Shown: piece after piece, positions 5,136 through 26,744 of the stretch
Position numbering within the stretch: the stretch's first letter is position 1
Layout: every line of letters begins with the position of its first letter
Assembly: GCA_964371005.1 (NCBI GenBank)
Contig: CAYJNU010000001.1
Location: 27,104 to 80,715, forward strand
Origin: an uncultured Verrucomicrobiota bacterium
GTDB taxonomy: Bacteria > Verrucomicrobiota > Verrucomicrobiia > Limisphaerales > MWDV01
DNA: 53,612 bases
Direction of reading: 5' to 3'
Program-made: the position numbers and the translations under genes
The notes under the pieces: generated by a model
What the model saw: only the letters and a program-made list of their open reading frames with translations
Databases searched by the model: none
Told to the model about the DNA's origin: nothing

Positions 5136-5508
5136 GCGGCCGCAGCCTGCTTGGCCAACCGGGGCGGGCCGATCAGATCGGGCTCGGTGTCTGCCATCAT
5201 CCTCCCGAATCACGGGCTTCGGTTAATCCCCCAACGTTTCCTTTTCGCTCAGCGAACGTCAGCTTCGCCCCCTGATACTTGCCGCGAGGTCGAGTTCCCC
5301 CGTGCCACCACCCGATCATCCGCGCCGGGCGGACCGGGCAATTTCCTCCCCAGCCCAGCCAAAATTGCCGAGACATGAAAGCCGCCGGCACTCCGAAAAC
5401 CGCATTGCCGCTGCCTCGTAACTGTTAGTGGATTGATTTGTCGGAGGTTAGGCAAACCCGGGCGGCCGTTCCAAGGGCTGGCATATCCACTGCTAAACGT
5501 CCCGCGGA

Positions 5509-5946
5509 ATGAAATGCGATAGCCCGACACTAACGGAAACAACTGAGAAGGCCACCAGCCGCGGACTGAAGCTTCCGATGGGGCTCCTGGGGTTTGAGCA
5601 GATAAAAGACTATGTGCTCATCACCAACCCCGGCGAAGAACCCTTTCGTTGGCTGGAGGTGCGCAACAATCCTGCCCTGGCCTTTGTCGTGGTGGACCCG
5701 TTTGTCGTCGTGCCGGATTATCGCCCGAACCTTCCGCAGCCGGACGTGGAGTTCCTGGGCATTCAATCGCCCGAGGACGTGCAGCTCCTGAATATCGTGA
5801 CCGTGCATGGTCCCAACCGGGCCACGGTCAACCTCAAGGGGCCAATCGTGATGAACCGCCACACCGCTACTGGGAAACAGGTGGTCATATCCAACGCCAG
5901 CGAGTACTCCGTGCAGCACCCGCTGCCTGTGGCCGCCGCCGAATAA
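5509..5946 (+). CDS. fliW: Flagellar assembly factor FliW
   Basis: 'LKLPMGLLGFEQIKDYVLI...EPFRWLEV...LAFVVVDPFVVVPDYRPNL...LNIVTVH...ATVNLKGPIVMN' fits the FliW pattern. It is adjacent to csrA and flagellin. Confidence 0.85.
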   Translation: MKCDSPTLTETTEKATSRGLKLPMGLLGFEQIKDYVLITNPGEEPFRWLEVRNNPALAFVVVDPFVVVPDYRPNLPQPDVEFLGIQSPEDVQLLNIVTVHGPNRATVNLKGPIVMNRHTATGKQVVISNASEYSVQHPLPVAAAE

Positions 5947-5963
5947 CCTCAACCACGCCTGCC

Positions 5964-6245
5964 ATGCTTATCCTCTCCCGCAAAACCGGCGAAAGCATCG
6001 TGATTGATGGACGCATCCACGTGAAGATCGTTCGCGTGGAAGGCGAGGTGGTGAAAGTGGGCATTGACGCGCCGGCCGATGTGCCCGTCCACCGTCGTGA
6101 GGTGTACGAGGAAATCCAACGCAGCAACCAGGCCGCGCTGACCCGTCCCCGTGCTCCGCTGCCCAAGGTGCCATTCCGCCTGGCCGTGCAACCGCAACCG
6201 AAGTCCCAACCGGCGCCAACCGCTCCGTCGTCCCCAGTCCAGTAA
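5964..6245 (+). CDS. csrA: Carbon storage regulator CsrA (flagellar type, with a Pro/Gln-rich C-terminal extension)
   Basis: 'MLILSRKTGESIVIDGRIHVKIVRVEGEVVKVGIDAPADVPVHRREVYEEIQ' is a near-canonical CsrA core. The internal ATG at 5964 of ORF 5649..6245 was chosen as the start. Confidence 0.9.
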   Translation: MLILSRKTGESIVIDGRIHVKIVRVEGEVVKVGIDAPADVPVHRREVYEEIQRSNQAALTRPRAPLPKVPFRLAVQPQPKSQPAPTAPSSPVQ

Positions 6246-6266
6246 AACCGTCAAACCGTCCGTCCT

Positions 6267-7070
6267 ATGATCATTAATACCAACATCACTGCTCAGGTTT
6301 CCTCACATAACCTGCAAACCAACCAGGCCCTGCTCAGCAAGTCGCTCTCACGCCTGAGCTCGGGCAGCAAGATCGTGAACCCAGCCGACGATGCCGCTGG
6401 CCTGGCCGTCGCTTCCCGGCTCGATGCGCAAATCCGCCGACTCGACGCCGCGCGCGACAACGTGGGTAACGCTATCTCCTACACCCAGACCCAGGATGGC
6501 TATCTCAAGAAGATCGCCAAGGCGCTCGATCGCATGAGCGAACTCTCCATCCTGGCGCAGGACGTCACCAAGTCCGACAACGACCGCGCCCTGTACCAAA
6601 CCGAGTTTTCGCAGTTGAGCGCCTACGTCACCAGTTCGTCCACCAAGGATTTCAACGGGGTCAGCCTCTTCTCCGGCGACACGCTCGACGTGACGATTGA
6701 CTCGGAGGGCGTCTCGTTTGCCATGCAGGGCGTCACGCTCGGCGACGCCATTTACGGCGACGCCATTAGCGCCTCCGTGGCCGATCGCACGTCCGCCCAG
6801 GACGCCTTGACCAAGGTGAAGGCCGCGATCACGAAGCTTTCGGAAGACCGCGCGACCATCGGTGCCTATCAGGCGCGGATGAACTCGACGGTCGAGCAGT
6901 TGATGGTGAGCAAAGAGAACCTCACCGCCGCCAGTTCCCGCATCCAGGACGTGGACGTGGCCGAGGAAAGCACGCAATTCGCGAAGCAAAACATCCTCGT
7001 CCAGTCCGGCACTGCGATGCTGGCCCAGGCCAACTCCATGCCACAGTCGGTCCTCCGCCTGTTGCAGTAA
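6267..7070 (+). CDS. fliC: Flagellin (short, 267 aa, no large variable domain)
   Basis: 'MIINTNITAQVSSHNLQTNQALLSKSLSRLSSGSKIVNPADDAAGLAVASRL' and the C-terminal 'FAKQNILVQSGTAMLAQANSMPQSVLRLLQ' are canonical flagellin N- and C-domains. Confidence 0.9.
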   Translation: MIINTNITAQVSSHNLQTNQALLSKSLSRLSSGSKIVNPADDAAGLAVASRLDAQIRRLDAARDNVGNAISYTQTQDGYLKKIAKALDRMSELSILAQDVTKSDNDRALYQTEFSQLSAYVTSSSTKDFNGVSLFSGDTLDVTIDSEGVSFAMQGVTLGDAIYGDAISASVADRTSAQDALTKVKAAITKLSEDRATIGAYQARMNSTVEQLMVSKENLTAASSRIQDVDVAEESTQFAKQNILVQSGTAMLAQANSMPQSVLRLLQ

Positions 7071-7128
7071 CACGCTGTCCAGCGACTTTCGTCGCCCACC
7101 AAACGCCGAGACCGCTGGCTCCTTCCAC

Positions 7129-7157
7129 GGGCGGGCCGACCCCACATCGGCCCGCCC
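7129..7157 (+). terminator. GC-rich hairpin downstream of flagellin (putative terminator)
   Basis: GGGCGGGCCGA (7129-7139) and TCGGCCCGCCC (7147-7157) are perfect reverse complements with a 7-nt loop, 59 nt after the flagellin stop. No clear U-tract follows. Confidence 0.4.
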
Positions 7158-7260
7158 AGTCATCGAAAACTGAATTTGCCACCGCTGCGTAACCGGGCAG
7201 TGGCTGCCGCGCCGAACAAAAACAGGCCCGCTGCCGGTTGAGCCGGGCAGACCAAACAAA

Positions 7261-7932
7261 ATGAAAACCATAATTCCTCCCTCCACTTCCAAGCACAACG
7301 GCTTCGCACTCGATTTCAACCCCGCTGCCACCCTCAACCCGAAGGCGAGCCGTGAGATTGCCAACATCCGCGACTGGTGTCTCCGGCGCGCGGACGAATG
7401 GTATCAGCGCGGCGAACTGGGCGCCGCCCGCGATTTCCTGAAACAGGCGGCGGAAGTGGATCCCCAGGACGCCCACGTTTGGGTCGCCCTCGGGAGTCTC
7501 CACTATCAACTCGGCGAATTTGAACGCGCCGGGATGGCCTTCGTGCATGCCGGGGAACTCGTGCCAGCGGACAGCGACGTCTTTCTGCACTTGGCGCTCA
7601 CGCACCAACAGCTCGGCCAAGACAAGGAATCGGAAGCCCTCTTCCAACACGCCCTGGCGCTAAACCCTGAGAATCCGTTTGGCTTCAGCCTTTACAGCGG
7701 TTTCCTCTTCGCCCGCGAGCGCTACGATGAAGCCCGCGAATACGTCGAGCGCGCGCTCGAAGAGCAGCCGGACAATCTCGACCTGCTGATGCGCCTCGGC
7801 GTTTGCTGCTTCAAGACGAACGACCGGCACGCCGCCCAGGCCTGCTTTGAGCGCGTGCTCAAGCTGGACCCGGCCAATGACACCGCCCGTGAGAACCTCA
7901 CGATCCTCCACCCCACAGCGGCTATGCAATAA
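7261..7932 (+). CDS. Tetratricopeptide repeat (TPR) protein
   Basis: Repeated 34-aa TPR-like units ('AHVWVALGSLHYQLGEFERAGMAFVHAGELVPADS', 'VFLHLALTHQQLGQDKESEALFQHALALNPENP', 'LMRLGVCCFKTNDRHAAQACFERVLKLDPAND'). Confidence 0.7.
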   Translation: MKTIIPPSTSKHNGFALDFNPAATLNPKASREIANIRDWCLRRADEWYQRGELGAARDFLKQAAEVDPQDAHVWVALGSLHYQLGEFERAGMAFVHAGELVPADSDVFLHLALTHQQLGQDKESEALFQHALALNPENPFGFSLYSGFLFARERYDEAREYVERALEEQPDNLDLLMRLGVCCFKTNDRHAAQACFERVLKLDPANDTARENLTILHPTAAMQ

Positions 7933-8006
7933 ACCCGCCTCGCCACGGCTCGGTTTCCACGCCCCTGACCTCCTCCGAGCCGGAGGCTTGGCACACCCAC
8001 CACGCC

Positions 8007-8693
8007 ATGGCAAACCGAGTCCTCAAGGCCCTGGTCGCTGTTCGCAGCGGCTCTGTCCGGGTTCAAAACAAAAACATCCGTCGCTTTTGCGGAAGCACGC
8101 TGCTTGAACTCCGAGTCAAACAGCTCCTCCAGATCGAGCAATTGGACGGCGTAGTCGTCAACTCAAACGACCCCGCCATGCTCGAAATGGCCGCCGACCT
8201 GGGTGCGGACACCGTCCAGCGCGACCCCCACTACGCGTCCAATACGGTTTCCATGAGCGACGTCTACGCCAACATGGCTGCCGCGATGGATTGCACCGAC
8301 ATTCTCTATGCCAATGTCACCAATCCACTGGTCAAGTCGGAATCGTACATGCGCGCTATCGAAGCTTACGACAATCTTGGAGCCGGCCATGACTCGTTGG
8401 CTTCAGTCTGTCCGGTTAAGGAATTTCTCTGGCTCGATGGCAAGCCGATCAACTACGACCCCGCCCGGCAACCCCGCTCGCAAGACCTTCCCGACATCTG
8501 CAAGCTGACCTTCGCCATCTCGATCATTCCCAGGAGTTTAATGATGTCTCGAAAGAACGTCATTGGTTTTCGCCCACAGTTGTTTGTGATGGAAGATGTG
8601 GAGTCACTGGACATTGACACGCCGTTGGACTTCGCCGTAGCCGAACACTTCTACCAGAAGCTGGTCTTGGAACAGGAGGCCGTGCTTGCATGA
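8007..8693 (+). CDS. Acylneuraminate/nonulosonate cytidylyltransferase family protein (CMP-sugar synthetase-like)
   Basis: 'ALVAVRSGSVRVQNKNIRRFCGSTLLELRVKQLLQIEQLDGVVVNSNDPAMLEMAADLGADTVQRDP' matches the N-terminal pattern of CMP-NeuAc/Pse/Leg synthetase-type cytidylyltransferases. Confidence 0.7.
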   Translation: MANRVLKALVAVRSGSVRVQNKNIRRFCGSTLLELRVKQLLQIEQLDGVVVNSNDPAMLEMAADLGADTVQRDPHYASNTVSMSDVYANMAAAMDCTDILYANVTNPLVKSESYMRAIEAYDNLGAGHDSLASVCPVKEFLWLDGKPINYDPARQPRSQDLPDICKLTFAISIIPRSLMMSRKNVIGFRPQLFVMEDVESLDIDTPLDFAVAEHFYQKLVLEQEAVLA

Positions 8694-10381
8694 CGACTGA
8701 GTTACCAGCGCGTCCCGTTTGCTTGGCGTCGTTCTTTCTGCAACTTGATGCTGCGAATTGCCACTGGTGGAAGCAGTTACAGGCTAAACTGGCCCGGCAC
8801 GGGATGGATTTGGTTCTGCTCGGGACCACTCCGCCGTCGGACCCGGAGCTTCGCGTTATCGTCGTCCCATTCTGGCTGCACGAATATGCAGACGCATATG
8901 TCACTCCGGCAGCGCCCGTGATTCTAGAAGAACAACTGACCAACGTATTGATCACGCGAGACAACGCATGGGCCCTGCCGGAGCGTCGCAACCCAATTAA
9001 GTCCACAGCCGGACTGGGTGTATGCCAGCAGATAATGCGAAAGGTGCTTGATGGATTGCAGCCTTCAGCGGTTTTGGTCTGGGGCAACAGTCTGCCGCAA
9101 AGTTTCGTCCTTCAACAATTGGCCGTGCAACAGGGGCGGCCTTGTTGGGTGATCGAACGCGGGTTGTTGCCTGGGACACTCATGATGGAGATGGCAGGTC
9201 AGGGTGGCCAGTCAGAGTTAAATCTGAGTTTCACTCTGAGCCGCGCGCTGCAAGCATCTTGCGACAGCGACCTGTTTTTGTCGGCGCAGTCGGATTACCG
9301 CAGCCGCCGCGAGAGCAAATACGCGCAGGCTGAATTCCTGGACGCGGAGGCCTTTCGGAAGCAACACAACCCATCAGGCCGCAAGCTGGTCGCCTTGTTG
9401 CTCCAGCATGACGTCTCCAGTTGCCTCGTTCCCTGTGAATACCGGGGCGCTCAACTTCATTCTCCTGTTTTCGCCTCGTCCGAGGAGGCAATGCTCCGCC
9501 TCGCCACCGTCGCGCGCGAATTGGATTGCACCGTGCTGGCCAAGCCGCATCCCGTGGATCAAACGGACTACGCACACTGCCAGAACGATTATCTACGGGT
9601 GGTCCGCGACGTAAATCTTATGAGCATGGTGGAGGCGGCGGACGTGGTCGCAGCCATGACGAGCACCGCACAATTTGAGGCGCTGCTGTCAGAAAAACCG
9701 CTCCTCCTCTTGGCTCACAGTCCGTTGGCGAACAAAGGTGTAGCGTACGAAGTCAAAGAACTGGCGAACTTGGCCCCCACGCTACGCGCCGCGCTTGACC
9801 GCGACAATTTCGAATTTCGGCTGGTTAGAGCACGTGAGGTCCTGACCTTTATCCTCAAATACTATTCAATCGCCCTAACGGACAAGTCGTCTGCCAAAGC
9901 GACGTTGGGAGATCTCGCCGGTTTCCTCGCGCAGAATGCGCTCCCGCCTGCGGGTGAATCGTCCACCGAAATGCGATGCAGCGTCGTCGAGCGTTGCCTC
10001 GCTCAATGGAAAAAGATCGCCAACCCCGCGAGCCAAACTCCTCCTTCACAGCGAGCCGCCCCACCAACTTCTGCGGCGCCGCCATGCGCGGACCATTCAG
10101 GAGAATCCACGGAATCTTTGCAGCAGCGCGCGGCACAATTATGCACCGCGTCAGACTGGAAAAGAGCCGCGGAACTCTATCAGTCGCTCGGCAACCGCCG
10201 GCCCAATGACGTCGCCATCTGGTGGGGCCGCATCGAATGTGCGCGTCAGCAGGGTTATTCTGTGATGGCCGATTTGCTCTTGGAAGAGGCGTTGGAGACG
10301 CACCCTGAATGGGCCGCGCAGCTTCGTCGCCGCACAAAGACCGCTACCGCCACACTCCTGTCGGCGGGGGTCGCAACGTAA
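8690..10381 (+). CDS. Capsule-synthesis (KpsS/KpsC-like) family protein with a helical-repeat C-terminus; candidate CMP-sugar-dependent glycosyltransferase
   Basis: ATGA overlap with the cytidylyltransferase gene. 'VLAKPHPVDQ' (HP motif) followed by 'VVAAMTSTAQFEALLSEKPLLLLAHSPLANKG' resembles the conserved KpsS/KpsC blocks. The C-terminal approx. 90 aa look TPR-like ('AAELYQSLGNRRPNDVAIWWGRIECARQQG'). Confidence 0.5.
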   Translation: MTTELPARPVCLASFFLQLDAANCHWWKQLQAKLARHGMDLVLLGTTPPSDPELRVIVVPFWLHEYADAYVTPAAPVILEEQLTNVLITRDNAWALPERRNPIKSTAGLGVCQQIMRKVLDGLQPSAVLVWGNSLPQSFVLQQLAVQQGRPCWVIERGLLPGTLMMEMAGQGGQSELNLSFTLSRALQASCDSDLFLSAQSDYRSRRESKYAQAEFLDAEAFRKQHNPSGRKLVALLLQHDVSSCLVPCEYRGAQLHSPVFASSEEAMLRLATVARELDCTVLAKPHPVDQTDYAHCQNDYLRVVRDVNLMSMVEAADVVAAMTSTAQFEALLSEKPLLLLAHSPLANKGVAYEVKELANLAPTLRAALDRDNFEFRLVRAREVLTFILKYYSIALTDKSSAKATLGDLAGFLAQNALPPAGESSTEMRCSVVERCLAQWKKIANPASQTPPSQRAAPPTSAAPPCADHSGESTESLQQRAAQLCTASDWKRAAELYQSLGNRRPNDVAIWWGRIECARQQGYSVMADLLLEEALETHPEWAAQLRRRTKTATATLLSAGVAT

Positions 10382-10412
10382 CCAGACGAGACGACGGCCA
10401 ACCCTTTGAGAC

Positions 10413-13400
10413 ATGGACACGCCTGACTATCAAGCGAGGCTGCAACAGCAAATCGAGCAGTATCGGCATGTGGAGAACATGCATGACTTGCCCGCCATTT
10501 ATCACTATTGGTCCAACAAGTATCTGCGCCCGAACATCAAGGAGGTATTGGAAGTTGATTCCATCACCGAGTTTTACGCGGAGCATCTCCGGCGGGCGGC
10601 TCAAAAGCACAAAGGGCCTTATCGCTTCGCCAGCCTGGGCGCGGGTGATTGCCTGGTGGAGATTGACGTTGCCAAGAGTCTGCGCGCCGGCGGTTTGGCG
10701 GATTTCATCTTTGAATGCTTCGAGCTTTCACCAGTGCTGTTGGCACGCGCGCAAGCCTCCGCCAAGGCCGAGGGCTTGGAGAAGTGCATCCGCCTGGTTC
10801 CGACTGATCTGAACAAGTGGACGCCACGCCCGCAATCTTACACCGGCGTCATTGCCAATCATTCCCTCCACCACTTCGTTGATCTGGAGACGATCTTCGA
10901 CAACACGCACACCGCATTGCGGACCGACGGTGTGTTTGTAACCAACGACATGATCGGCCGCAACGGCCACATGCGCTGGCCGGAAGTCCTGCGCATGGTC
11001 GAGCCAATCTGGGCCACCCTGCCGAATCGCCTGAAATTCAACCAACAGCTTAAGTCGCTCGATGAATCATTCGTCAATCGCGACTGTTCCCTGGAAGGCT
11101 TTGAAGGCATCCGCGCCCAGGACATTCTGCCTTTGTTGGTGACGCGTTTCGAATTCAGTCACTTTCTCGCGTTCGGCGGGTTGATTGACGTGTTCATTGA
11201 TCGCGGCTACGGCCACAACTTCGATCCGGCCGACGAAAAAGACTTGGCCTTGATTGATTCCATTGCACAGCAAAATGACGCGGCTCTGGCTCAAGGCACC
11301 CTCAAGCCCACCATGTTGCTTGCCGTGATGACTCCCGGTCAGGTCGCCCAGCCAAAGTGCCATCAGGGTCTCACCCCGGAGTTCTCCGTGCGACCGCCCT
11401 CAATCATTGAACTCAATGTGACGCCCATTCCCAAAGTCTCCATCGTCATCCCTGTCCTGAACAAGGTGGATTTCACTCGCAAATGCCTTGACGCACTGCG
11501 CCGGCACACGCCGGCAGGACAATACGAGGTGGTCGTATGGGACAATGGCTCCACGGACGGCACGAAGACTTTCCTCGAAAAGCAATGTGCGGTTGATCCG
11601 GTCGTACGTTACTTCCGCAGCGAGGAAAACCTCGGCTTCGTCGGCGGGAACAACGCGGCCGTGCAACACGCACGCGGCGAATTCCTCGTCTTCCTCAACA
11701 ACGACACCGAACCGCAACCGGGCTGGCTGGAAGCACTCCTGCAAACGGCGGAGTCTGATTCCTCCGTCGGCGCCGTCGGCGCCAAATTGATTTATCCGGA
11801 CGGCAAACTCCAGGAAGCCGGTGGCATCATCTTCCGCGACGCGTCGGGCTGGAACTATGGCCGCACGCAGGACCCACGTGACCCGCGGTTCAATTTCCCA
11901 CGCGAGGTGGATTACTGTTCCGCGGCTTGTCTGCTCGTGCGGACGGCACTCTTCCGGCAATTGGGCGGGTTCGACGTTCGTTACTCACCCGCTTACTACG
12001 AGGACACCGACCTCTGCTTTGCGCTGCGCCATAACGGCTATCGCGTCATTTATCAGCCGCGCTGCGAAATCATCCACCACGAGGGCGCGACAGCCGGCCA
12101 GGACTTGACCAAGGGCTTCAAGCAGTATCAGGTCGCCAACCGCCAGAAGTTCACGGAGAAGTGGAAAGAAGCGCTCGGCCGCCAGCACGTGCCCGATGCG
12201 AACCTGGTGCGTCGGGCCAGCCACCGCGCGCGGGGGCAGCGGATTCTCGTCATTGATCCGCTCTTGCCCATGTACGATCGCGCGTCCGGCTCGCGGCGGC
12301 TGTTCGAGATGCTGAAGATTCTCGCCGCTGGCGGCAACGCCGTGACGTTCATCGCGCGCAATGGTCAAGGGGGGGAACGTTACGCGACGGAACTTCAGGC
12401 GCTGGGTATCGAAGTATATGCGGGTGATGCGGAACGCATGAAGGAATGTGGCTTCGCGGTTAAATGCTGGCCGCTCGATTTGCCGAAGCTGCTGCGCGAA
12501 TCGCAATACGAAACGATCATCCTCAGCTTCTGGTACGTCGCGGAACAATATCTTTCCCGCCTCCGCGCCTGGTCGCCGAAATCACGCGTGGTGGTTGACA
12601 CGGTGGACGTACATTTCCTCCGCGAGCGTCGCCAAGCTGAGCTGTATCAAGACCACGAGCTCTTGCTCCGGGCGCTGGACACGTACCGGCGCGAGTTGAA
12701 CGTCTATCGTCAGGCTGACGCACTGATCACGGTCACCGAGGACGACCGGCAGGCTTTGCTGAAGGAAATCCCGCAGAGTTGCATCTTCGTGGTACCCAAT
12801 ATCCACGAAGTAGCTGCGGACATTCCGCCCGTGGACCATCGCAACGGCTTGCTCTTCGTCGGGGGCTTCGGCCATCCGCCGAACGAGGACGCTGTCCTCC
12901 ATTTCCACCGTGAAATCTGGCCGCGCATTCGACAGCGCGTGCCTGACGCCCGCTGGACGATCGTCGGCAACAAACCGCCCGCCGCGGTGCAAGCGCTGGC
13001 TGGGCCAGCCATTGAGGTCACCGGCTACGTCCCAAGCATGGAGCCTTATCTGCGTTCGCATTTGGTTTCCGTTGCGCCACTGCGGTACGGCGCAGGGATG
13101 AAGGGCAAGATTGGCGAGGCGCTCGCGAACGGCCTGCCGGTGGTGACCACCCGCATCGGCGCCGAGGGCATGGGCTTGGAAGACGGCAAGGGCGGCACGC
13201 TGGTTGGCGATGATCCCGAAGCCTTTGCCGATCACGTCGCGCGGCTTTACACCGATCGCGGTCTATGGACCCAGCTTTCCGCCCAAGGTCGCCAGCACAT
13301 TGAATCCCACTTCACCCCGCAGTGCATCGCGCGCCAACTGGAGACGCTGCTGGATTGGAGCAGTTCGTTCTGCTCCATCATCGTGCTCGCGCTGAATCAG

Positions 13401-16214
13401 TGGGAACACACCGAGAAGTGTCTCGCCAGCCTCGCCCGCCACACCCCCGAACCGCACGAAGTGATCCTCGTGGACAACGGCTCGACAGACAAAACGCCCG
13501 AAGCGTTGCGCGTGATGGCCGTCAAGAATCAGCGCGTCCGCGTAATCTTCAATCGCGAGAATCGCGGTTTTGCCGCCGGTAACAATCAGGCTCTCGCCAT
13601 CGCGCGCGGCGACGTCGTCGTGCTCCTTAACAACGATACGGTTGTCACTCCGGGTTGGCTCGGGCGCATGCTTGACGTGCTCAAGCGGCATCCGGACACG
13701 GGCGTCGTCGGTCCGATGTCCAACCACGTTTCCGGCCCGCAACGCGTCAGCGATGTCAGTTACACGGACTTGGCCGGCCTACCCGCGTTCACCGAAAGCT
13801 GGGCCGCTGCGCATGATGAACAAGCATTTGAAGTCGGACGCGCCGTGGGCTTCTGCCTGCTCGCGCGGCGCGAGGTCATCGAGCGCATCGGCGGGCTCGA
13901 CGAGCGCTTTGGCAGCGGCAATTTCGAGGATGACGACTTTTGCATCCGCGCGCGGCTTGCCGGTTGGCGCATCCGGATCGCGAAAGATTCCTTCGTTCAC
14001 CACACGGGTAGCCAGACGTTCAAGGGCGCGAAGATTGACTATCGCTCAGCGATGCTGCGCAACTGGGAGTTGTTTCGGACGAAGTGGCAGTTACCCGCCG
14101 ATGTGGTGTTGGAGCAGGGTTATCCACTTCCGCAACGCCTGCCCGCCGGTGTGCCCCTCAACGCTCCCCTCTCCGCGCTCGAACTGACTCACACGATTAC
14201 CAGCGACCGCATCTGGTCGCAGCGCTCGCCGGCTGCCGCGCGCACGTTATCGGAGGATGAACTCCCGCCTGCGGCAAAAGTCGGCCGACTGGATGATGCT
14301 CGCGATCTGTTTGGCCGCCGCAATTATGCTGACGCGTGGCGAGCGGCCGTGATTGCTCTGCAAGCGCGCCCGTTCCATCCCGAAGCCTGCCTCCTGCTCG
14401 CGGAAATCGCCCTGGCCGCCGGCGACGCCGCCACGGCGCGGCTTTGCGCTCAGCGCGCCACCGAGTTCGCCCCGCACTGGAAGGCCGGGCGACAGTTCTT
14501 GAAGCAGCCGCTCAGAGGCGATGCGAAGCCCGAATGGCTGGCGCTGCCCGAGCAAATCCGAAATCCGAAATCCGCGACCCGGCATCGGTTGACCGTAGGC
14601 GTGCTCACAAAGAATGAGGAACGCTTCATCGCCCAGTGTCTGAACTCGGTGAAGGGCGTCGCCGACCAGATCATTGTCCTCGACACGGGTTCATCCGATC
14701 GCACGATCGAGATTGCGAAATCGCTCGGTGCGGAGGTTCATTCCACGACTTGGAACGACGACTTCAGCGCGCCGCGCAATCTGATTCTGGAGCACGCCAC
14801 CGGGGATTGGATTCTAATGCTCGACGCCGACGAAGAACTGCCCGCCGACCAGCACGCAGCACTGCGCGCGGACTTGCGCAAGCCCGAGGCCATTGCCTGC
14901 CGCGTGCCGTTGGTGAACCGCGGCCAGGAAGCCGAGGGTCAGAGTTTCATTCCGCGCCTGTTTCGCAACGCGCCCGGCGCGCACTACTACGGTCGCATTC
15001 ACGAGCAGGTGTTTCCCAGCCTGCTGCCGCTGTGCAAGAAGTTCGGACTCGACACGGCGCTTGGCACGGCCCGTCTGCTGCATCACGGCTACACGAAGGA
15101 ACTGGTCCGGGATCGCAACAAGATCGAGCGCAACCTGAATCTGCTTCGTCTTGCGATCGCCGAGCGGCCCGACGAACCCAATCTGATGATGAACCTCGGC
15201 CTCGAACTCGTGCGCTCCGGCGATCTCGATGCCGGCATTGTGCATTACCGCGACGCGTTCCGCCTGATGTCCGCGCAAAAGCCCGCCGAAGTCGTGCCCG
15301 AGTTGCGTGAAGTATTGCTGACGCAGTTCACGTCCCATCTTTACAAGGTGCGGGCGCATGACACCGTGGTGCAGGTACTGACCTCGCCGCTCGCGAAAGT
15401 CGGCAGCGGGTTGACCGCCTCCATGCACTTTGCCCTGGGCCTGTCGAGTTTCGAGTTGAAGGATTACCGGCAGGCGGTCGACAACATGCGCCAGTGTCTG
15501 GCGAAATTGAAGCAACCGGCACTCTCGCCCATCAACACGGATATCCTGACGGCCGCGCCGCATCATTGCCTGGCGTTGGCGCTCGCGAAGCTCAACGATG
15601 TGGCAGGCGCGGAGAAGGCCTTTCAAGCCGGGCTCGCCATGACCTCGCGGACGGAGGACATGCAGGTGGATTACGCTCGTTTCCTGATGGCGCAACAGCG
15701 GCCCGTGGAAGCCCTGCAAAGCCTGAATGAAGTGGTCCAGCGCAACGCCACCCACTCCTCGGCGTGGCGGTTGGGCGGCGAGATTGGCCTGAGCCAGCCG
15801 GAGTATCTGGAATTCGCGCGTGATTGGACTGCCGAAGCAGTGCGACAATTACCGAACGACTTGGCGGTGGTGGCTCAACGCGCCGAGGCGTTGATGCTCA
15901 GTCGGGAGCCCCGCGAGGCGCGCCCGCTTTGGGAACGCGCCTGCAACGGGGCGCGTCCGCCGCGCGCCGTCGCGGCGGCCATCCTATGCGCAACCCTCGA
16001 GGCGCAGCCGGGGCTGTCCCCGCAAAACGCCGCCGAAGAGGTGAATGTGAGCCGCGCGTTTGTGGATTGGTATCGGCGGCTGGTCACCTTCCAGGCGCTG
16101 GAAACCGTGGTTCAACTGAACGGTCGCGTCGGCCTGCTGCGGGAAACGCTGCCGGGCGCCGCCCGCGTGATCGAAACCGTCGTCGCGGCGGCCGATGCCG
16201 CCCAGCCGGGCTGA
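10413..16214 (+). CDS. 1933-aa multidomain glycan-modifying enzyme: class I SAM methyltransferase, GT2, GT4 (GT-B), GT2, TPR, GT2, TPR
   Basis: MT: 'FASLGAGDCLVEID...VIANHSLHHF'. GT2-A: 'VSIVIPVLNKVDFTRKCL...VVVWDNGSTDGT...FLNNDT'. GT4: 'RILVIDPLLP...GAGMKGKIGEALANGLPVVTT'. GT2-B: 'IIVLALNQWEHTEKCL...ILVDNGSTDKT...LLNNDT...FEDDDFC'. GT2-C: 'LTVGVLTKNEERFIAQCL...VLDTGSSDRT...MLDADEEL'. There are TPR-like stretches between and after the domains. Confidence 0.85.
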   Translation: MDTPDYQARLQQQIEQYRHVENMHDLPAIYHYWSNKYLRPNIKEVLEVDSITEFYAEHLRRAAQKHKGPYRFASLGAGDCLVEIDVAKSLRAGGLADFIFECFELSPVLLARAQASAKAEGLEKCIRLVPTDLNKWTPRPQSYTGVIANHSLHHFVDLETIFDNTHTALRTDGVFVTNDMIGRNGHMRWPEVLRMVEPIWATLPNRLKFNQQLKSLDESFVNRDCSLEGFEGIRAQDILPLLVTRFEFSHFLAFGGLIDVFIDRGYGHNFDPADEKDLALIDSIAQQNDAALAQGTLKPTMLLAVMTPGQVAQPKCHQGLTPEFSVRPPSIIELNVTPIPKVSIVIPVLNKVDFTRKCLDALRRHTPAGQYEVVVWDNGSTDGTKTFLEKQCAVDPVVRYFRSEENLGFVGGNNAAVQHARGEFLVFLNNDTEPQPGWLEALLQTAESDSSVGAVGAKLIYPDGKLQEAGGIIFRDASGWNYGRTQDPRDPRFNFPREVDYCSAACLLVRTALFRQLGGFDVRYSPAYYEDTDLCFALRHNGYRVIYQPRCEIIHHEGATAGQDLTKGFKQYQVANRQKFTEKWKEALGRQHVPDANLVRRASHRARGQRILVIDPLLPMYDRASGSRRLFEMLKILAAGGNAVTFIARNGQGGERYATELQALGIEVYAGDAERMKECGFAVKCWPLDLPKLLRESQYETIILSFWYVAEQYLSRLRAWSPKSRVVVDTVDVHFLRERRQAELYQDHELLLRALDTYRRELNVYRQADALITVTEDDRQALLKEIPQSCIFVVPNIHEVAADIPPVDHRNGLLFVGGFGHPPNEDAVLHFHREIWPRIRQRVPDARWTIVGNKPPAAVQALAGPAIEVTGYVPSMEPYLRSHLVSVAPLRYGAGMKGKIGEALANGLPVVTTRIGAEGMGLEDGKGGTLVGDDPEAFADHVARLYTDRGLWTQLSAQGRQHIESHFTPQCIARQLETLLDWSSSFCSIIVLALNQWEHTEKCLASLARHTPEPHEVILVDNGSTDKTPEALRVMAVKNQRVRVIFNRENRGFAAGNNQALAIARGDVVVLLNNDTVVTPGWLGRMLDVLKRHPDTGVVGPMSNHVSGPQRVSDVSYTDLAGLPAFTESWAAAHDEQAFEVGRAVGFCLLARREVIERIGGLDERFGSGNFEDDDFCIRARLAGWRIRIAKDSFVHHTGSQTFKGAKIDYRSAMLRNWELFRTKWQLPADVVLEQGYPLPQRLPAGVPLNAPLSALELTHTITSDRIWSQRSPAAARTLSEDELPPAAKVGRLDDARDLFGRRNYADAWRAAVIALQARPFHPEACLLLAEIALAAGDAATARLCAQRATEFAPHWKAGRQFLKQPLRGDAKPEWLALPEQIRNPKSATRHRLTVGVLTKNEERFIAQCLNSVKGVADQIIVLDTGSSDRTIEIAKSLGAEVHSTTWNDDFSAPRNLILEHATGDWILMLDADEELPADQHAALRADLRKPEAIACRVPLVNRGQEAEGQSFIPRLFRNAPGAHYYGRIHEQVFPSLLPLCKKFGLDTALGTARLLHHGYTKELVRDRNKIERNLNLLRLAIAERPDEPNLMMNLGLELVRSGDLDAGIVHYRDAFRLMSAQKPAEVVPELREVLLTQFTSHLYKVRAHDTVVQVLTSPLAKVGSGLTASMHFALGLSSFELKDYRQAVDNMRQCLAKLKQPALSPINTDILTAAPHHCLALALAKLNDVAGAEKAFQAGLAMTSRTEDMQVDYARFLMAQQRPVEALQSLNEVVQRNATHSSAWRLGGEIGLSQPEYLEFARDWTAEAVRQLPNDLAVVAQRAEALMLSREPREARPLWERACNGARPPRAVAAAILCATLEAQPGLSPQNAAEEVNVSRAFVDWYRRLVTFQALETVVQLNGRVGLLRETLPGAARVIETVVAAADAAQPG

Positions 16215-16225
16215 GTCCCTGAACC

Positions 16226-16302
16226 GGAGTGCGCCCGTCCTCGGGCGCAGCAACCCGGCTCGCACCCCAGGACGTTGCTGCGCCCGAGGACAGGCGCACT
16301 CC
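16226..16302. repeat. 29-bp inverted repeat (1 mismatch, 19-nt spacer) between convergent genes; palindromic element or bidirectional terminator
   Basis: GGAGTGCGCCCGTCCTCGGGCGCAGCAAC (16226-16254) versus GTTGCTGCGCCCGAGGACAGGCGCACTCC (16274-16302). It starts 12 nt after the stop of the 1933-aa gene. Confidence 0.65.
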
Positions 16303-17417: not shown

Positions 17418-18128
17418 TCAACAGATCGTGACTTCGCGCAAACCAAGCAAGGCGGTGGTGTCGGCGTCATGGTCCGTCCCGCGTGGATGGAAAACGAATT
17501 CGTGTCGTCCGGGCGGCAGGCTGGAAAGGGCGGCTTGGATTTCTTTCGCGTTCATGCGGTACAGACGGTCAAGTCCCCAGAGCGTATCCGATTTCGCGGA
17601 GCGGTTCCACCGGCTGAGCCAGCGGCAGGCAAAGGGGCGAAGCCATCGCTCAGGGCCAGATGGACCAAACCAGCGCACCTCGAAACCGCGCAGCCAACCG
17701 ACAAACGTCCCAGGCAGGACGGACTCCAAGACGCGAAGCACCTGGGGGTGGACATGCAGGTGGTGGTGAGCATTCAGGAAATCACAGCGCAAGCCGGTGG
17801 ATTCAAACAACCGCCATTGTTGGCGAATCTCCCGACGCATGAGCTGTCGAGATTGAGCATGGCAGCCGATGGCCAGGCCGGCCCGAAAGGCGGATCCGCC
17901 CCAGGGCCAGGCCGGGCAGGTCGTCGGCGAAGAGTCGCACAAGTGCAGATGCCAACCGAGCTTTAGCGATGGGCACTCGCGGGCCAACTGAACCGCATGT
18001 TCGGTACCCGCTTGGCCCACCATCAGGCTGGCTCCATGAAGGGCGCCCTCGCGGTGCGCACGGAGAACCGCCAGGTTGATTGTTTCGCTGATGCCAAAAT
18101 CATCGGCAATGAAGACGCCGCCTGTCAT
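17418..18128 (-). CDS. ChbG/YdjC/HpnK-family carbohydrate deacetylase
   Basis: 'GVFIADDFGISETINLAVLRAHREGALHGASLMV' carries the DDFG motif and N-terminal block of the YdjC/ChbG/HpnK family. Its size of 236 aa fits. Confidence 0.75.
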   Translation of the reverse strand: MTGGVFIADDFGISETINLAVLRAHREGALHGASLMVGQAGTEHAVQLARECPSLKLGWHLHLCDSSPTTCPAWPWGGSAFRAGLAIGCHAQSRQLMRREIRQQWRLFESTGLRCDFLNAHHHLHVHPQVLRVLESVLPGTFVGWLRGFEVRWFGPSGPERWLRPFACRWLSRWNRSAKSDTLWGLDRLYRMNAKEIQAALSSLPPGRHEFVFHPRGTDHDADTTALLGLREVTIC

Positions 18129-18325
18129 GTGGCGAGGGTTTTACAGGCTTTGCTTTCCCATGCAAGGCTGATATGAAGCTGTGCGGAAGAACATGAAGGA
18201 CCAAGTCAACACCGCTCAGAAGGGCGGCATGGGTTTCATCGGTCGCGGACTCGTGCGCACCTCGATCACGCAAGGGAAACGCCTGAGTCTCCCATGCTTG
18301 GCCCTCCTTGCGGTTTTGCCTCTCC

Positions 18326-19603
18326 ATGCCGGTCATTGAGTATGCCTTGCTGGCTTGGACCGGTGTCGCCTTGATTTGGTGGCTGATCGCCTACCGGCTC
18401 CTGGGCGAATCACCCGACCCGAGCCCGGCGCCGACCGCGGCGCCACTGCCGACGCTCACGATCTTCAAACCGCTGCCTCCGACCACTGCCGACGCGGATC
18501 GCCTTCTTTTGGCGGCTGCCATCGAATCCTTTATCGCGCAGCTGGACGCGAATTCACAGATGCTTGTCGGCGTTGAACAAACGGAGGCGGACGCCTGGGA
18601 GCCGGTTTTCCAGCGTTGGCGTCGCGGTCCGGCAGCCGCACGGATTCTAATAGTGACCCTGCCGCCGCCACTTCCGGAAGCGAACCCCAAAATAGCCAAG
18701 CTGGAAGCTCTCGCGCCGATGGCGCTGGGGCGATTCTGGCTTTGGTCAGACGCGGACATCATCGCGCCCCCAGGCTTGCTAAGGCAGCTTCAGCGGGAAC
18801 TGGCCGATTCCGGTGCCGGCGGGGTAACGAGTGCCTACGCGGTGAGGTCGCCCGCGCGGGCGGCAGGAATGCTGGACGCGCTTTTTGTGAACCTGGAGTT
18901 CCTTCCCGGCGTGCTGCTGCTCGGCCGGCGCGGTCGGCTGGATTTCGCCTTCGGCGCCGCGACCTTGTTTTGCGCGGCGGATTTCCACGCCCGTGTCTCG
19001 TGGAGCGAGCTGCGCCGGGCCCTAGCCGATGACCACGAGTTGGGGAAGCGTCTGGGCTCCGTACGCCTGAGTGGTAGCGTCGTGGAGACGTTGGCCTTGT
19101 CGGTTGGCTGGCGACAGGCGCTGAACCACTATTATCGCTGGCAGAAGACGATTCGGTGGTGTCGGCCGGGAGGCTACGCGGCGTTACTCGTCATTCTGCC
19201 GTTCCTGGGGTGGCTGGCGGTGGCGTTGGCCCGTCCCTCGGCAGGACTGTCTTGGGCGGGGCTCGGTGGCACGTGGCTGGCAGAATCGGTTTTCGCTGGC
19301 ATCGCGTTTCGCAGGTTGAATTGTGTGCTACCGCGGAAAGGGTGGCTCGCGTTCATCGCTTGGCCCCCTCTGCGGGCGCTGACCTGGCTGGCGGTGTGGA
19401 TGCCCTTGCCGATCCGCTGGGGCGAAGGCCATGCCCTTTGGCGACAGCCACGACGCGCTTTCGCCAAATCGCCATCGGCGGAGGCGTGCGCTCAGACCGT
19501 CAAGGCACCAGCGACTGGCGGCGCTGCCGCAGGCCGCGAAAGAACTCAAAGCCCTCCCGACAGCGACGGACGCACACCGTGCGATCCTCCAGCATGGTCT
19601 TGA
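18326..19603 (+). CDS. Membrane glycosyltransferase, ceramide-glucosyltransferase/HpnI-like (GT-A with an R/QxxRW motif)
   Basis: N-terminal TM helix, 'LTIFKPL', 'WSDADIIAPPG', 'DDHELGKRL' and 'YYRWQKTIRW' ((Q/R)xxRW), plus C-terminal TM helices. ATG 18326 is preferred over TTG 18308. The 3' end overlaps the convergent radical SAM gene by 104 nt. Confidence 0.7.
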   Translation: MPVIEYALLAWTGVALIWWLIAYRLLGESPDPSPAPTAAPLPTLTIFKPLPPTTADADRLLLAAAIESFIAQLDANSQMLVGVEQTEADAWEPVFQRWRRGPAAARILIVTLPPPLPEANPKIAKLEALAPMALGRFWLWSDADIIAPPGLLRQLQRELADSGAGGVTSAYAVRSPARAAGMLDALFVNLEFLPGVLLLGRRGRLDFAFGAATLFCAADFHARVSWSELRRALADDHELGKRLGSVRLSGSVVETLALSVGWRQALNHYYRWQKTIRWCRPGGYAALLVILPFLGWLAVALARPSAGLSWAGLGGTWLAESVFAGIAFRRLNCVLPRKGWLAFIAWPPLRALTWLAVWMPLPIRWGEGHALWRQPRRAFAKSPSAEACAQTVKAPATGGAAAGRERTQSPPDSDGRTPCDPPAWS

Positions 19604-20927: not shown

Positions 20928-21233
20928 GCTGCCAAGCTAGCAGAGGCCGATGCCAACGCCAGATTTTGCGATGGGGGAGGGGCGTGGCCTCGACTCCCTT
21001 TCTGTTTTCACTCTGTTTGGGGTGGCCGACATCACGGAGCGCCAATTCCGCGTGCTATCCTCGGAGGTGCAGGGAGGGAATACAGTCCGCGTGTAACCTT
21101 TATGCAGCGGCTACTAACACTTCGCCGCGCCGTCTCCACAGAAAAAAGACGACAATGAAGTTGATATTGCCTGTTCTGGCCTCCACACTTCGAGGCGCTC
21201 CATCCGTGATGCTGATTTGGATGGTTCGCAGTT

Positions 21234-21557
21234 ATGCCATCGGAAGACGGTCATTTCGCACCACTACAGCTTGAACAAGCCATCCGGCGCCGTGCGCAGG
21301 TGATCAATGCCTTCAAAGAGGAGTTGATCCGGCGGCTAAACCTCCCTTTTGTCCCGGAAGACCTCCACGAAGATGTGTCACTGCTCGGTTCGGGGCTGGG
21401 GCTCGACTCGCTCGATGCGCTTGAGATCGTGCTTTGCATCGAACACTGCTTCCGCATCAAGATTCCCGACGAAAACATCGCCGTGCTGCGTTCAATCAAC
21501 ACCGTGGTGGATTTCATCATCGCCCAACAGGATGCCCAGGGAGGGAAGCCGGCATGA
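21234..21557 (+). CDS. Acyl carrier protein (phosphopantetheine attachment site)
   Basis: 'LLGSGLGLDSLDALEIVLCIEHCF' contains the DSL serine motif. It is 107 aa. Confidence 0.85.
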   Translation: MPSEDGHFAPLQLEQAIRRRAQVINAFKEELIRRLNLPFVPEDLHEDVSLLGSGLGLDSLDALEIVLCIEHCFRIKIPDENIAVLRSINTVVDFIIAQQDAQGGKPA

Positions 21558-22663: not shown

Positions 22664-22669
22664 GCTGCC

Positions 22670-23116: not shown

Positions 23117-23150
23117 TACCGCGGCCTGAAACCGGGACAATCCCGCATTC

Positions 23151-23894: not shown

Positions 23895-23904
23895 CCGTGC
23901 TCCG

Positions 23905-24891: not shown

Positions 24892-24898
24892 ACGGGCG

Positions 24899-26737: not shown

Positions 26738-26744
26738 ATGCACT

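Follow-up and report, generated by a model that had tools for sequence, protein, structure and literature searches.

Decoration of flagellin with sugars is a well-known bacterial function. In Pseudomonas aeruginosa and Pseudomonas syringae (FgtA, Fgt1/2) and in Clostridioides difficile, strain-variable islands next to flagellin genes decorate flagellin with oligosaccharides that are in some cases methylated, and their allelic cassettes vary between close strains; we know of no KpsC-like transferase or CMP-sugar step in these islands. Other cytoplasmic, flagellin-adjacent systems use CMP-sugar-acid transferases that put nonulosonic acids on flagellin, namely FlmG of Caulobacter and Maf of Campylobacter, Helicobacter, Aeromonas, Shewanella and Clostridium, and FlmG and Maf-1 bind flagellin through their TPR domains (PMC7591256; bioRxiv 10.1101/2023.12.03.569772); given CMP-Kdo, Maf can transfer Kdo to flagellin (PMC11339370). 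TPRs are likewise the flagellin-binding device of Listeria monocytogenes GmaR, a flagellin beta-O-GlcNAc transferase that adds single GlcNAc residues (PMC9638930). A QXXXD nucleophile motif defines retaining beta-Kdo transferases (PMC10148158), and WbbB places one Kdo as a terminal cap (PMC9587256); in Tannerella forsythia, BFO_1060/Tanf_01245 is a terminal Pse/Leg transferase of a general protein O-glycan (PMC5420450).

Here we describe a block of genes in a window of 53,612 nucleotides, the whole stretch of DNA analyzed, from an uncultured, flagellated Verrucomicrobium (MAG G000; 91.7% complete, 6.6% contamination, 597 contigs). Transcribed behind fliW-csrA-flagellin, the block is probably a cytoplasmic flagellin O-glycosylation island working by the stepwise mechanism proposed below, and its four soluble enzyme genes most likely decorate the filament protein with a complex, methylated and acid-capped sugar chain. 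What is unusual is not this function but the mix of enzymes and the fact that no gene for the synthesis of a sialic-acid-like sugar was found in the MAG.

Organization of the island

The five genes reported in the initial annotation were confirmed, with their coordinates and domains, by ORF and Pfam analysis; all lie on the plus strand (Table 1) and make up the 3' end of a late flagellar gene run, flgI-flgJ-flgN-flgK-flgL-fliW-csrA-flagellin. FliW is a flagellin-binding partner of CsrA, and the fliW-csrA pair is the regulatory module in which the island sits.

Table 1. Features of the island and its borders (window coordinates)
Feature	Position	Strand	Evidence
fliW, left anchor of the island, kept across loci	5509..5946	+	PF02623 FliW, E 4e-36
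csrA	5964..6245	+	PF02599 CsrA, E 7e-22
Short flagellin, 267 aa, D0/D1 only, presumed acceptor	6267..7070	+	Flagellin_N + Flagellin_C
GC-rich hairpin, 11-bp stem, 7-nt loop, 59 nt past flagellin stop	7129..7157	+	Read in sequence
Stand-alone TPR protein, 223 aa, cytoplasmic	7261..7932	+	Many TPR Pfam hits
NeuA-like cytidylyltransferase ("type B"), 228 aa	8007..8693	+	PF02348 CTP_transf_3, E 6.6e-17
KpsC/WbbB-like HP-motif GT-B transferase, 563 aa	8690..10381	+	PF05159 Capsule_synth, 29.7 bits vs cut-off 20
Giant protein 1-330: SAM-dependent methyltransferase	10413..11402	+	PF08241, PF13649, PF08242 at residues 76-180
Giant protein 331-600: GT2 module a, glycan-extending type	11403..12212	+	PF00535
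Giant protein 601-985: GT4 (GT-B) module	12213..13367	+	PF13692, PF13439, PF00534
Giant protein 986-1380: GT2 module b, glycan-extending type, short TPR-like linker	13368..14552	+	PF00535
Giant protein 1381-1650: GmaR/SunS-type GT2 module (GT2c)	14553..15362	+	PDB + NCBIfam matches
Giant protein 1651-1933: C-terminal TPR domain, stop codon	15363..16214	+	TPR Pfam hits at 1669-1806
29-bp inverted repeat, 12 nt past the operon's last stop	16226..16302	.	Read in sequence

Because Flagellin_N spans residues 3-137 and Flagellin_C residues 181-266, the flagellin carries no D2/D3 insert, in agreement with its earlier description as short and without a variable outer domain. Its Ser/Thr content is 20% overall and 26% over residues 101-190, a TSSST patch included. 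The genome encodes five flagellins, four of them elsewhere, and the four paralogues on contig C62 were aligned with the island copy. The acceptor might instead be another flagellar or a non-flagellar protein.

TPRs occur in three island proteins. The stand-alone TPR protein is a candidate flagellin-recognition adaptor; within the order, at least 12 genomes have homologues of it adjoining flagellin genes, either standing alone or repeated within giant ORFs. No island protein has a TM segment or a signal peptide, and the genes next to the island included no flippase, polymerase, ABC exporter or lipid-carrier priming enzyme. Maf (PF01973) was not found in the MAG, in line with the initial annotation, which had proposed an island without Maf-type genes.

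The giant protein and its conserved module

The 1933-aa protein (10413-16214) consists of a methyltransferase followed by GT2, GT4, GT2, GT2 and TPR modules, and its methyltransferase domain supports the suggestion of a methylated glycan. GT2 module a finds its best PDB matches in chondroitin synthase and GalT1 rather than in GmaR or SunS, and module b in chondroitin synthase and similar enzymes. GT2c, by contrast, matches GmaR (E 1.8e-21) as well as SunS (2.6e-21) and a ThuS-like enzyme (4.5e-17), SunS and ThuS being related peptide glycosyltransferases. It scores 101.9 bits against the NCBIfam SunS family and is, from these matches, presumed to start the glycan as an O-glycosyltransferase acting on protein (flagellin). 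The TPR domain behind it, with matches to PilF/OGT TPRs, is presumed to bind the acceptor. GT2c is the best-conserved element of the island (54-85% identity across loci) and the TPR domain is conserved along with it, the two forming the island's core. The proposal of a different transferase set thus stands in part: this end of the protein belongs to a known class of flagellin/protein O-glycosyltransferases.

Like GmaR, the module is cytoplasmic, flagellin-linked and built in the order GT2, then TPR (PMC9638930). Unlike GmaR, it forms the C-terminal fifth of a larger protein with three further GT modules and a methyltransferase, comes with neither a detectable GmaR antirepressor domain nor a MogR context, and is expected to give rise to an oligosaccharide rather than a single GlcNAc.

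A KpsC/WbbB-like transferase and its partner

The start of the 563-aa ORF overlaps the cytidylyltransferase stop in an ATGA (8690-8693), so that the overlap noted initially is real and the two genes are predicted to be translationally coupled. A GT-B region (residues 1 to ~450) is followed by a two-repeat TPR tail (~470-550); profile searches returned the tail and a weak KpsC hit. The AF2 model (pLDDT 82.6) has a confident GT-B fold, with KpsC and WbbB among the top Foldseek hits in the PDB and highest in identity, although generic GT-B enzymes score equally. Invariant in the family are K-P-H-P, E156-R-G and T326-x-Q-F-E; methyltransferase domains occur in 18 of 40 representatives, and TPRs in about nine.

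The protein resembles the retaining beta-Kdo transferases KpsC/KpsS (GT107) and WbbB (GT99), taken together with the capsule-specific CMP-Kdo synthetase KpsU, in its PF05159 match above cut-off, its GT-B model, its HP motif and the cytidylyltransferase gene of its own that lies next to it. It differs from KpsC and WbbB in having no membrane anchor, in that QXXXD is not kept in the family but replaced after the equivalent strand by Q-H-D (or H-N-D, G-Y-E) (PMC10148158), and in its proposed acceptor, flagellin or a glycan bound to protein instead of a lipid-linked polymer. FlmG and Maf resemble the island in combining a CMP-sugar-acid transferase with a TPR flagellin-binding module, but those systems depend on NeuB-made Pse or Leg; in FlmG, moreover, an N-terminal TPR precedes a C-terminal GT-B domain, whereas here the GT-B domain comes first and belongs to the KpsC/KpsS Pfam family. 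Tannerella BFO_1060 is also an HP-motif GT-B enzyme, adding a terminal CMP-activated acid to a protein-bound oligosaccharide (PMC5420450); its HP-region match is weak (E 0.009, 15 bits vs a family cut-off of 200), and its system is periplasmic, based on a lipid carrier and supplied with NeuB-derived sugars.

The cytidylyltransferase, proposed to make a CMP-activated acidic sugar donor, is NeuA-like and not KdsB/KpsU-like. Among solved structures it comes closest to NeuA CMP-sialate synthetases (E 2e-13), and it lies below the curated cut-offs for both PseF (59 vs 205.7) and KdsB (25 vs 193). The tree groups it (support 88/86) in one sub-clade with homologues lying directly beside NeuB, which is followed there by a GT29 sialyltransferase-family gene, and not with the GT99-linked ones; the sister clade sits beside Wzt and GT99, with homologues directly adjoining Wzt and GT99 (WbbB-family) genes in NeuB-less loci. 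This grouping, together with scores far below the KdsB models, speaks against Kdo as the acid.

As initially reported for the window, no NeuB was found there, nor did a search of the complete MAG sequence set find one. The MAG does encode bona fide KdsA (404 bits) as well as KdsB (268 bits); the Kdo pathway was the only such acid-sugar pathway found.

Distribution and cassette variability

In all 13 related loci, drawn from at least nine genera, the KpsC-like gene lies behind fliW-csrA(-flagellin)(-TPR), with fliW upstream and csrA adjoining it, and a GmaR-like GT2+TPR module closes the island. Since the same order recurs in these loci, the arrangement is not due to chance. In some relatives (L009, L010) the island follows csrA with no flagellin gene between. 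Among 151 genomes of the order, 80 with and 71 without flagellin, the KpsC-like protein has matches in 11 (10 over the catalytic core), all flagellin-bearing, and in none of the 71 that lack flagellin. Together with the soluble enzymes and lack of export genes, this upholds the proposed flagellin-linked glycosylation island; as only about one in eight flagellated genomes of the order has it, the island is dispensable for flagella.

Gene fusions link island parts to one another, a single 2482-aa ORF in one relative comprising the KpsC-like domain, methyltransferase, GTs and TPR. The central part of the island is an exchangeable cassette, for which the same-genus genome G104 has a different version; its right breakpoint is the start of GT2 module b, DNA collinearity with G104 resuming at 13378. 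Such allelic differences recall the Pseudomonas and C. difficile islands, which differ in their enzyme set; here a single giant polypeptide unites the GT activities.

Proposed pathway and alternatives

We infer the acceptor, the order of the steps and the identity of every sugar as follows. Before export, while flagellin is still unfolded, GT2c and the C-terminal TPR would attach an initial hexose or HexNAc to its Ser/Thr residues, the free TPR protein aiding recognition. On the same giant protein, GT2 modules a and b, both chondroitin-synthase-like, and the GT4 module would extend the chain, which the N-terminal methyltransferase would methylate. The NeuA-like enzyme would produce a CMP-activated 3-deoxy-ulosonic acid, probably Kdo or a derivative rather than a nonulosonic acid, for transfer by the coupled KpsC/WbbB-like enzyme with its own TPR tail, likely to the glycan end as a terminal cap, much as WbbB caps O-antigen with Kdo and Tannerella BFO_1060 enzymes cap a protein-bound glycan. 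Alternatively, the KpsC-like enzyme may transfer the acid straight onto flagellin.

It is unlikely that the island performs classical nonulosonic-acid glycosylation of flagellin, with CMP-Pse, -Leg, -Neu or -Kdn as donor, the KpsC-like enzyme in place of Maf or FlmG and the synthase in an unassembled part of the ~92% complete MAG. The NeuA-like affinity of the cytidylyltransferase and its NeuB- and GT29-associated sub-clade argue for such a donor, as do the nonulosonic-acid transferases among HP-motif GT-B enzymes, including the weakly matching BFO_1060, and the NeuB genes that adjoin flagellins in other genomes of the order. However, NeuB was not found in G000, in the same-genus G104 and G024, in four related island MAGs (G151-G154) or in eight of ten sampled island genomes, most of them at least 90% complete, nor within 8 kb in 35-37 of 41 loci of the cytidylyltransferase clade. 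Failure to find NeuB in an incomplete MAG is not proof of absence, though five independent MAGs agree; loss through incompleteness in all of these genomes is improbable, and the CMP-nonulosonic acid implied in the initial annotation is an unlikely donor. A different target, such as the FliD cap, hook-associated proteins or a wider protein set, or a second, regulatory role of the TPR-rich tail, has little probability. GmaR is bifunctional (PMC9638930), the island lies within the fliW-csrA module, some relatives have it without an intervening flagellin gene, and four of the five flagellins are encoded elsewhere; against this, the GmaR antirepressor domain is not matched, the PDB hit covering GT residues 12-196 only. 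To our knowledge, flagellin is the only acceptor of flagellum-linked cytoplasmic GT+TPR systems. Very improbable is a role in building an envelope glycan, whether a capsule, an LPS O-antigen cap or an exopolysaccharide, with chance adjacency to flagellin, even though PF05159 is a family of capsule synthesis, polysaccharide loci typically carry GT2 and GT4 modules, and KpsC/WbbB and the GT99-linked cytidylyltransferase homologues act on lipid-linked polysaccharides (PMC10148158; PMC9587256). The conserved core is of the protein-glycosylating GmaR/SunS type, neither Wzt/Wzm nor KpsMT lies in or beside the island, KpsC-like matches in the 151-genome sample are confined to flagellated genomes, and the neighborhoods of related loci are flagellar in 13 of 13 cases and capsular in none.

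Both elements read in the intergenic DNA lack a T-run and were for this reason not called by a consensus terminator scan. The hairpin, placed between flagellin and the glycosylation genes, may act as an attenuator, and the inverted repeat is likely the transcript end or a stabilizer.

A probable glycosylation island of soluble proteins next to flagellin

The study genome, a 7.77-Mb metagenome-assembled genome (MAG; 597 contigs, 91.7% complete, 6.6% contaminated), has nearest public relatives that carry the label Verrucomicrobiota. The window covers 27104-80715 of its contig C1. Upstream of the island, its + strand encodes flgI, a flgJ-like rod-binding gene, flgN, flgK, flgL, fliW and csrA; the five genes that follow have the coordinates and domain content proposed in the initial annotation, which open reading frames (ORFs) and domain matches bore out in full, ATGA overlap included (see table). 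On the 3' side lie convergent or unrelated genes (MBL hydrolase, YdjC, GT21, B12 radical SAM enzyme and lipid-type genes), and the stretch from the YdjC-type deacetylase to the lipid-type operon is without relation to the island.

Features of the island and of its 3' surroundings in the window
Feature	Position	Strand	Size	Content
Flagellin	6267-7070	+	267 aa	N- and C-terminal helical regions only
Hairpin	7129-7157		11 bp	GC-rich, 59 nt 3' of the flagellin stop, without T-run
TPR223	7261-7932	+	223 aa	TPR protein
Cytidylyltransferase	8007-8693	+	228 aa	CTP_transf_3; best solved relatives are NeuA CMP-sialate synthetases
KpsC-like protein	8690-10381	+	563 aa	PF05159 (Capsule_synth) above cut-off; ATG overlaps the cytidylyltransferase stop as ATGA
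Giant protein	10413-16214	+	1933 aa	Methyltransferase, GT2a, GT4, GT2b, GT2c, TPRs
G7 run	12369-12375			Inside the giant gene
AAATCCG repeat	14554-14574			Three tandem units inside the giant gene
Inverted repeat	16226-16302		29 bp	Directly 3' of the operon's last stop, without T-run
3' gene group	17418-29108			YdjC-type deacetylase, GT21 membrane glycosyltransferase, B12 radical SAM gene, then lipid-type operon (GcvT-like, SDR, acyltransferase, FeeM::aminotransferase, FMN reductase::SCP2 and acyltransferase genes)

No transmembrane segment or signal peptide was found in 4/4 island proteins, and annotation of the neighbouring genes revealed no flippase, polymerase, ABC exporter or lipid-carrier priming enzyme adjoining the island. 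This combination of soluble proteins with no adjoining export or lipid-carrier genes is the signature of cytoplasmic protein glycosylation.

Conservation at flagellar loci

The island is a real feature. When window proteins were mapped to 13 related loci, which span at least nine genera, the KpsC-like gene lay downstream of fliW-csrA in every case, usually with a flagellin gene and often with a TPR223 homologue in between; a GT2+TPR module like that of the window giant protein closes the island wherever the contig is long enough (54-85% identity). The neighbourhoods of the relatives do not speak against the flagellin reading initially proposed: the island clearly sits at flagellar loci (13/13) rather than beside capsule or LPS genes.

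Homologues of the 563-aa protein are rare: 20 came up when 5.8 billion proteins were screened by a word-indexed search, and 185,579 species genomes yielded six loci, most labelled Verrucomicrobiota. Of 1.84 billion representatives searched exhaustively, 66 matched at E ≤ 1e-30 and 1088 with the limit set to E ≤ 1e-3. Among 151 genomes spread evenly over the order (80 with flagellin, 71 without), the protein was matched in 11, all in the flagellin group (0/71 in the other), a co-occurrence that serves as description and not as a test because the genomes are related and hence non-independent. One of the 11 matches, in genome G046, is confined to the TPR tail; this genome was not counted as transferase-bearing, its giant ORF having a kinase-like domain in place of the KpsC-like core.

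At least 12 genomes of the order have TPR223 homologues that adjoin flagellin genes, either alone or repeated within giant ORFs, and by analogy with the TPRs of FlmG and Maf-1, which act in flagellin recognition (PMC7591256; bioRxiv 10.1101/2023.12.03.569772), TPR223 fits the part of a flagellin-recognition protein. Sites of such homologues by flagellin genes (genome:contig) are G070:C123, G006:C70, G001:C17, G061:C227, G008:C49, G064:C16, G037:C1 and G081:C5, and in some genomes of the order the repeated TPR223-like units sit in ORFs of up to 4432 aa.

The study MAG has a second flagellin locus (contig C62, 12491-18851) with four tandem flagellin paralogues followed by fliD, near which a search for sugar genes found none. 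Together with the window flagellin these make five short flagellins, all of which could be acceptors.

A GmaR/SunS-like module closes the giant protein

Comparison with solved structures identified GmaR and the peptide glycosyltransferases SunS and ThuS as the best relatives of GT2c (residues ~1385-1600; GmaR, E = 1.8e-21; SunS, 2.6e-21; 7msk, 4.5e-17), which scores 101.9 bits against the NCBIfam SunS family, under the equivalog cut-off of 350. GT2a and GT2b gave no GmaR or SunS match among solved structures and instead matched chondroitin synthase, GalT1 and similar chain-extending enzymes, so that the protein-directed signal is specific to GT2c. Directly C-terminal to this module are TPRs (Pfam matches at 1669-1806, in addition to OGT and PilF TPR matches), and the GT2c-TPR unit is the part kept in all islands compared.

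GmaR, the flagellin O-GlcNAc transferase of Listeria, has the same order of GT2 followed by TPR and carries a C-terminal antirepressor domain that binds MogR (PMC9638930). The giant protein is unlike GmaR in the strict sense in that this MogR-binding domain is not matched: the GmaR PDB match spans GmaR GT residues 12-196 only, and structures of GmaR 141-637 drew no match from the giant protein in the PDB sequence comparison. Enzymes of the GmaR/SunS type act on Ser/Thr (or Cys) of a protein, which for GmaR is flagellin. By analogy, and supported by its conserved position beside flagellin, GT2c-TPR is presumed to transfer a sugar to Ser/Thr of flagellin.

A KpsC/WbbB-like 563-aa protein

PF05159 matches the 563-aa protein at 29.7 bits (cut-off 20) over residues 254-354 only, and is also matched by 16/40 family representatives. 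Its nucleotide-binding half carries an HP motif, K285-P-H287-P288, which is invariant in alignments of both 18 and 40 sequences. Such a motif is common to β-Kdo transferases and bacterial sialyltransferases, and retaining β-Kdo transferases also have an invariant QXXXD motif with an Asp nucleophile (PMC10148158). The latter is not kept in the 563-aa family, where the segment past what appears to be the equivalent β-strand reads LLLQHD, FFGHND or GGGYE; an acidic residue seems to be retained at Q+2 instead of Q+4.

The confident AF2 model (pLDDT 82.6) has a GT-B fold for which Foldseek ranks KpsC (8fux, 6mgc, 6mgd) and WbbB (8csb, 5fa1) at 2-4 with the highest identity (15-18%), and ordinary GT-B enzymes, CalG1 and PimA among them, reach the same scores (E ~1e-9, TM 0.3-0.5). 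The last ~90 residues are two TPRs by profile search, and the family profile matches KpsC weakly among PDB sequences (E 0.04-0.6), most matches being to TPR. Because the HP motif is kept and QXXXD is not, the modelled protein is best named a KpsC/WbbB-like HP-motif GT-B enzyme rather than a proven member of GT107 or GT99.

Fusions among the 40 representatives involve SAM methyltransferase (18), TPR (~9), GT2 (6) and B12 radical SAM (4) domains. In one relative, a single 2482-aa ORF joins the KpsC-like domain, a methyltransferase, all GT modules and TPR, which argues, as a Rosetta stone, that the window KpsC-like and giant genes act together.

FlmG is a single ~600-aa protein with an N-terminal flagellin-binding TPR and a C-terminal GT-B domain, and it needs pseudaminic acid (PMC7591256). 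The 563-aa protein is set apart by its reverse order of GT-B and then TPR, and the study MAG, unlike genomes with FlmG systems, yielded no NeuB/PseI. The Maf/MptE-like domain (PF01973) likewise found no match in the whole MAG. In one relative (locus L045), the cytidylyltransferase is preceded by a weak MptE-like gene.

Kdo or a nonulosonic acid as possible donor

The cytidylyltransferase matches PF02348 at 62.5 bits and falls below the cut-offs of both the PseF model (59 versus 205.7) and the best KdsB model (25.4 versus 193). It thus lacks the equivalog score that, with NeuB in the genome, marks a CMP-nonulosonate synthetase. Initially no nonulosonic acid synthase was noted in the window, and a search of the whole MAG likewise found neither NeuB (PF03102) nor PseI; bona fide KdsA and KdsB are present (KdsB on contig C26, 268 bits). 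Searches for NeuB were also negative in two genomes of the same genus, in four further island-bearing MAGs and in 8/10 island genomes of the order sample; a strong NeuB is present in about a third of the order. A DAHP_synth_1 search for sugar-acid synthases turned up the housekeeping KdsA, an AroG-type enzyme and nothing else. With KdsA and KdsB present, Kdo is the sole 3-deoxy-ulosonic acid that this genome can visibly make.

The clade of the enzyme is large (1552 matches) and its gene contexts are mixed. A few loci have NeuB together with a GT29 gene; at least six that lack NeuB combine Wzt, including its carbohydrate-binding domain, with a GT99 gene of the WbbB family; and others have genes like MptE or TagB. 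A maximum-likelihood tree puts the window enzyme in the sub-clade that contains the NeuB-adjacent homologues (support 88/86) and the GT99-linked ones in the sister clade, a placement that leans towards a nonulosonic acid. Genome content and the KpsC-like partner lean towards Kdo, and on balance Kdo or a derivative is somewhat more likely to be the donor.

In locus L081 (6678-10360), as in L060, L076, L105, L108 and L109, all from gut or other metagenomes, a cytidylyltransferase homologue of 54-58% identity has the ABC-transporter ATPase Wzt (with Wzt_C) on one side, GT99 on the other and no NeuB. By analogy with the terminal Kdo-cap arrangement of Wzt and GT99 WbbB (PMC9587256), these look like O-polysaccharide capping systems with their own CMP-sugar synthetase.

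Elsewhere in the order, divergent NeuB genes (113-146 bits; ORFs of 366-775 aa) lie a few kb from flagellin genes (G124:C60, G066:C163, G095:C9 and G064:C16), so that islands of nonulosonic-acid type also occur at flagellin loci.

Cassette exchange between close relatives

The island of the same-genus genome G104 (locus L031, contig C3) is collinear with the window DNA over 5477-7900 (fliW to the TPR gene, 82%) and 13378-16215 (GT2b to the end, 76%). The intervening 5.5 kb (7900-13378), which encodes the cytidylyltransferase, the KpsC-like protein and MT-GT2a-GT4, gave no DNA alignment to G104, and its right breakpoint is the GT4/GT2b domain junction within the giant gene. GC content is 0.57-0.59 in the variable part versus 0.62-0.65 in the flanks. 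The G104 cassette instead contains another cytidylyltransferase (27% identity), which carries an RraA-like class II pyruvate aldolase domain as a fusion, along with a KpsC-like gene with 34% identity and a ~900-aa HAD-domain protein.

The same fusion and ~900-aa protein, with its HAD domain N-terminal, define a set of sister islands (type A; L009 8436-15153 and L030-L034); tblastn found no counterpart of either the RraA-like aldolase or the HAD protein in the study MAG. These genes may provide a way to make a CMP-activated ulosonic acid by an aldolase, independently of NeuB. Variation extends further: L013, the closest relative, carries a pair of KpsC-like paralogues, and in L039 (824-3820; G046:C41) the giant ORF opens with a protein-kinase/APH-like domain, a methyltransferase and TPR where the KpsC-like core is expected, followed by a GT2a-GT4-GT2b-GT2c array 56-79% identical to the window. 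Such swapping is typical of flagellin glycosylation islands that vary between strains, and it indicates that the flagellar surface of soil and freshwater bacteria is under strong diversifying selection.

A candidate pathway and its significance

From the observed parts list, relationships and genomic linkage we infer an acceptor, an order of steps and a set of sugars. The GmaR-like GT2+TPR module would prime Ser/Thr of flagellin, residues 101-190 of which are 26% Ser/Thr; GT2a, GT4 and GT2b would then lengthen the chain, and the methyltransferase would modify it. The cytidylyltransferase, acting with the KpsC-like enzyme to which it is translationally coupled, would attach an acidic ulosonic acid, probably in terminal position, with TPR223 and the two TPR tails recognizing the acceptor.

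Flagellin glycosylation governs filament assembly and motility, as well as recognition by phages and predators and detection by immune systems. To our knowledge, acid-sugar flagellin systems use two transferase types, Maf and FlmG, and sugars made by NeuB. A tentative reading, less likely than not, is that a KpsC/WbbB-like GT-B enzyme bearing a TPR tail caps flagellin, or the O-glycan on it, with Kdo or with some other ulosonic acid whose synthesis needs no NeuB. The enzyme would then constitute a third class of flagellin acid-sugar transferase, and in sister cassettes the donor would come from the cytidylyltransferase::RraA-like aldolase fusion. If this were true, a Kdo cap would be the first natural Kdo-type protein modification that we know of, and the RraA-like fusion a new aldolase route to CMP-activated ulosonic acid.

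Islands for flagellin glycosylation, enzymes of the GmaR type and flagellin transferases guided by TPRs are already known. The literature searched contained no report of Verrucomicrobia that glycosylate flagellin or of KpsC-like enzymes that do so, and three features appear undescribed there: a KpsC/WbbB-like transferase in a flagellin glycosylation island, a NeuA-like cytidylyltransferase without NeuB, and a polypeptide in which five catalytic modules are fused. The island suggests that environmental Verrucomicrobiota use a GmaR-like enzyme for priming, together with a transferase of the capsule type (KpsC/WbbB-like) and a CMP-sugar that does not depend on NeuB. Moreover, because the enzymes are all soluble and several are fused, they form a compact kit whose reconstitution in E. 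coli could probe the acceptor and donor rules of protein O-glycosylation.

Repeats and candidate switches

Consensus scans for promoters and terminators yielded nothing exceeding shuffled expectation. Within the giant gene, the G7 run and the AAATCCG repeats are of a kind that could allow on/off switching by slipped-strand mispairing.
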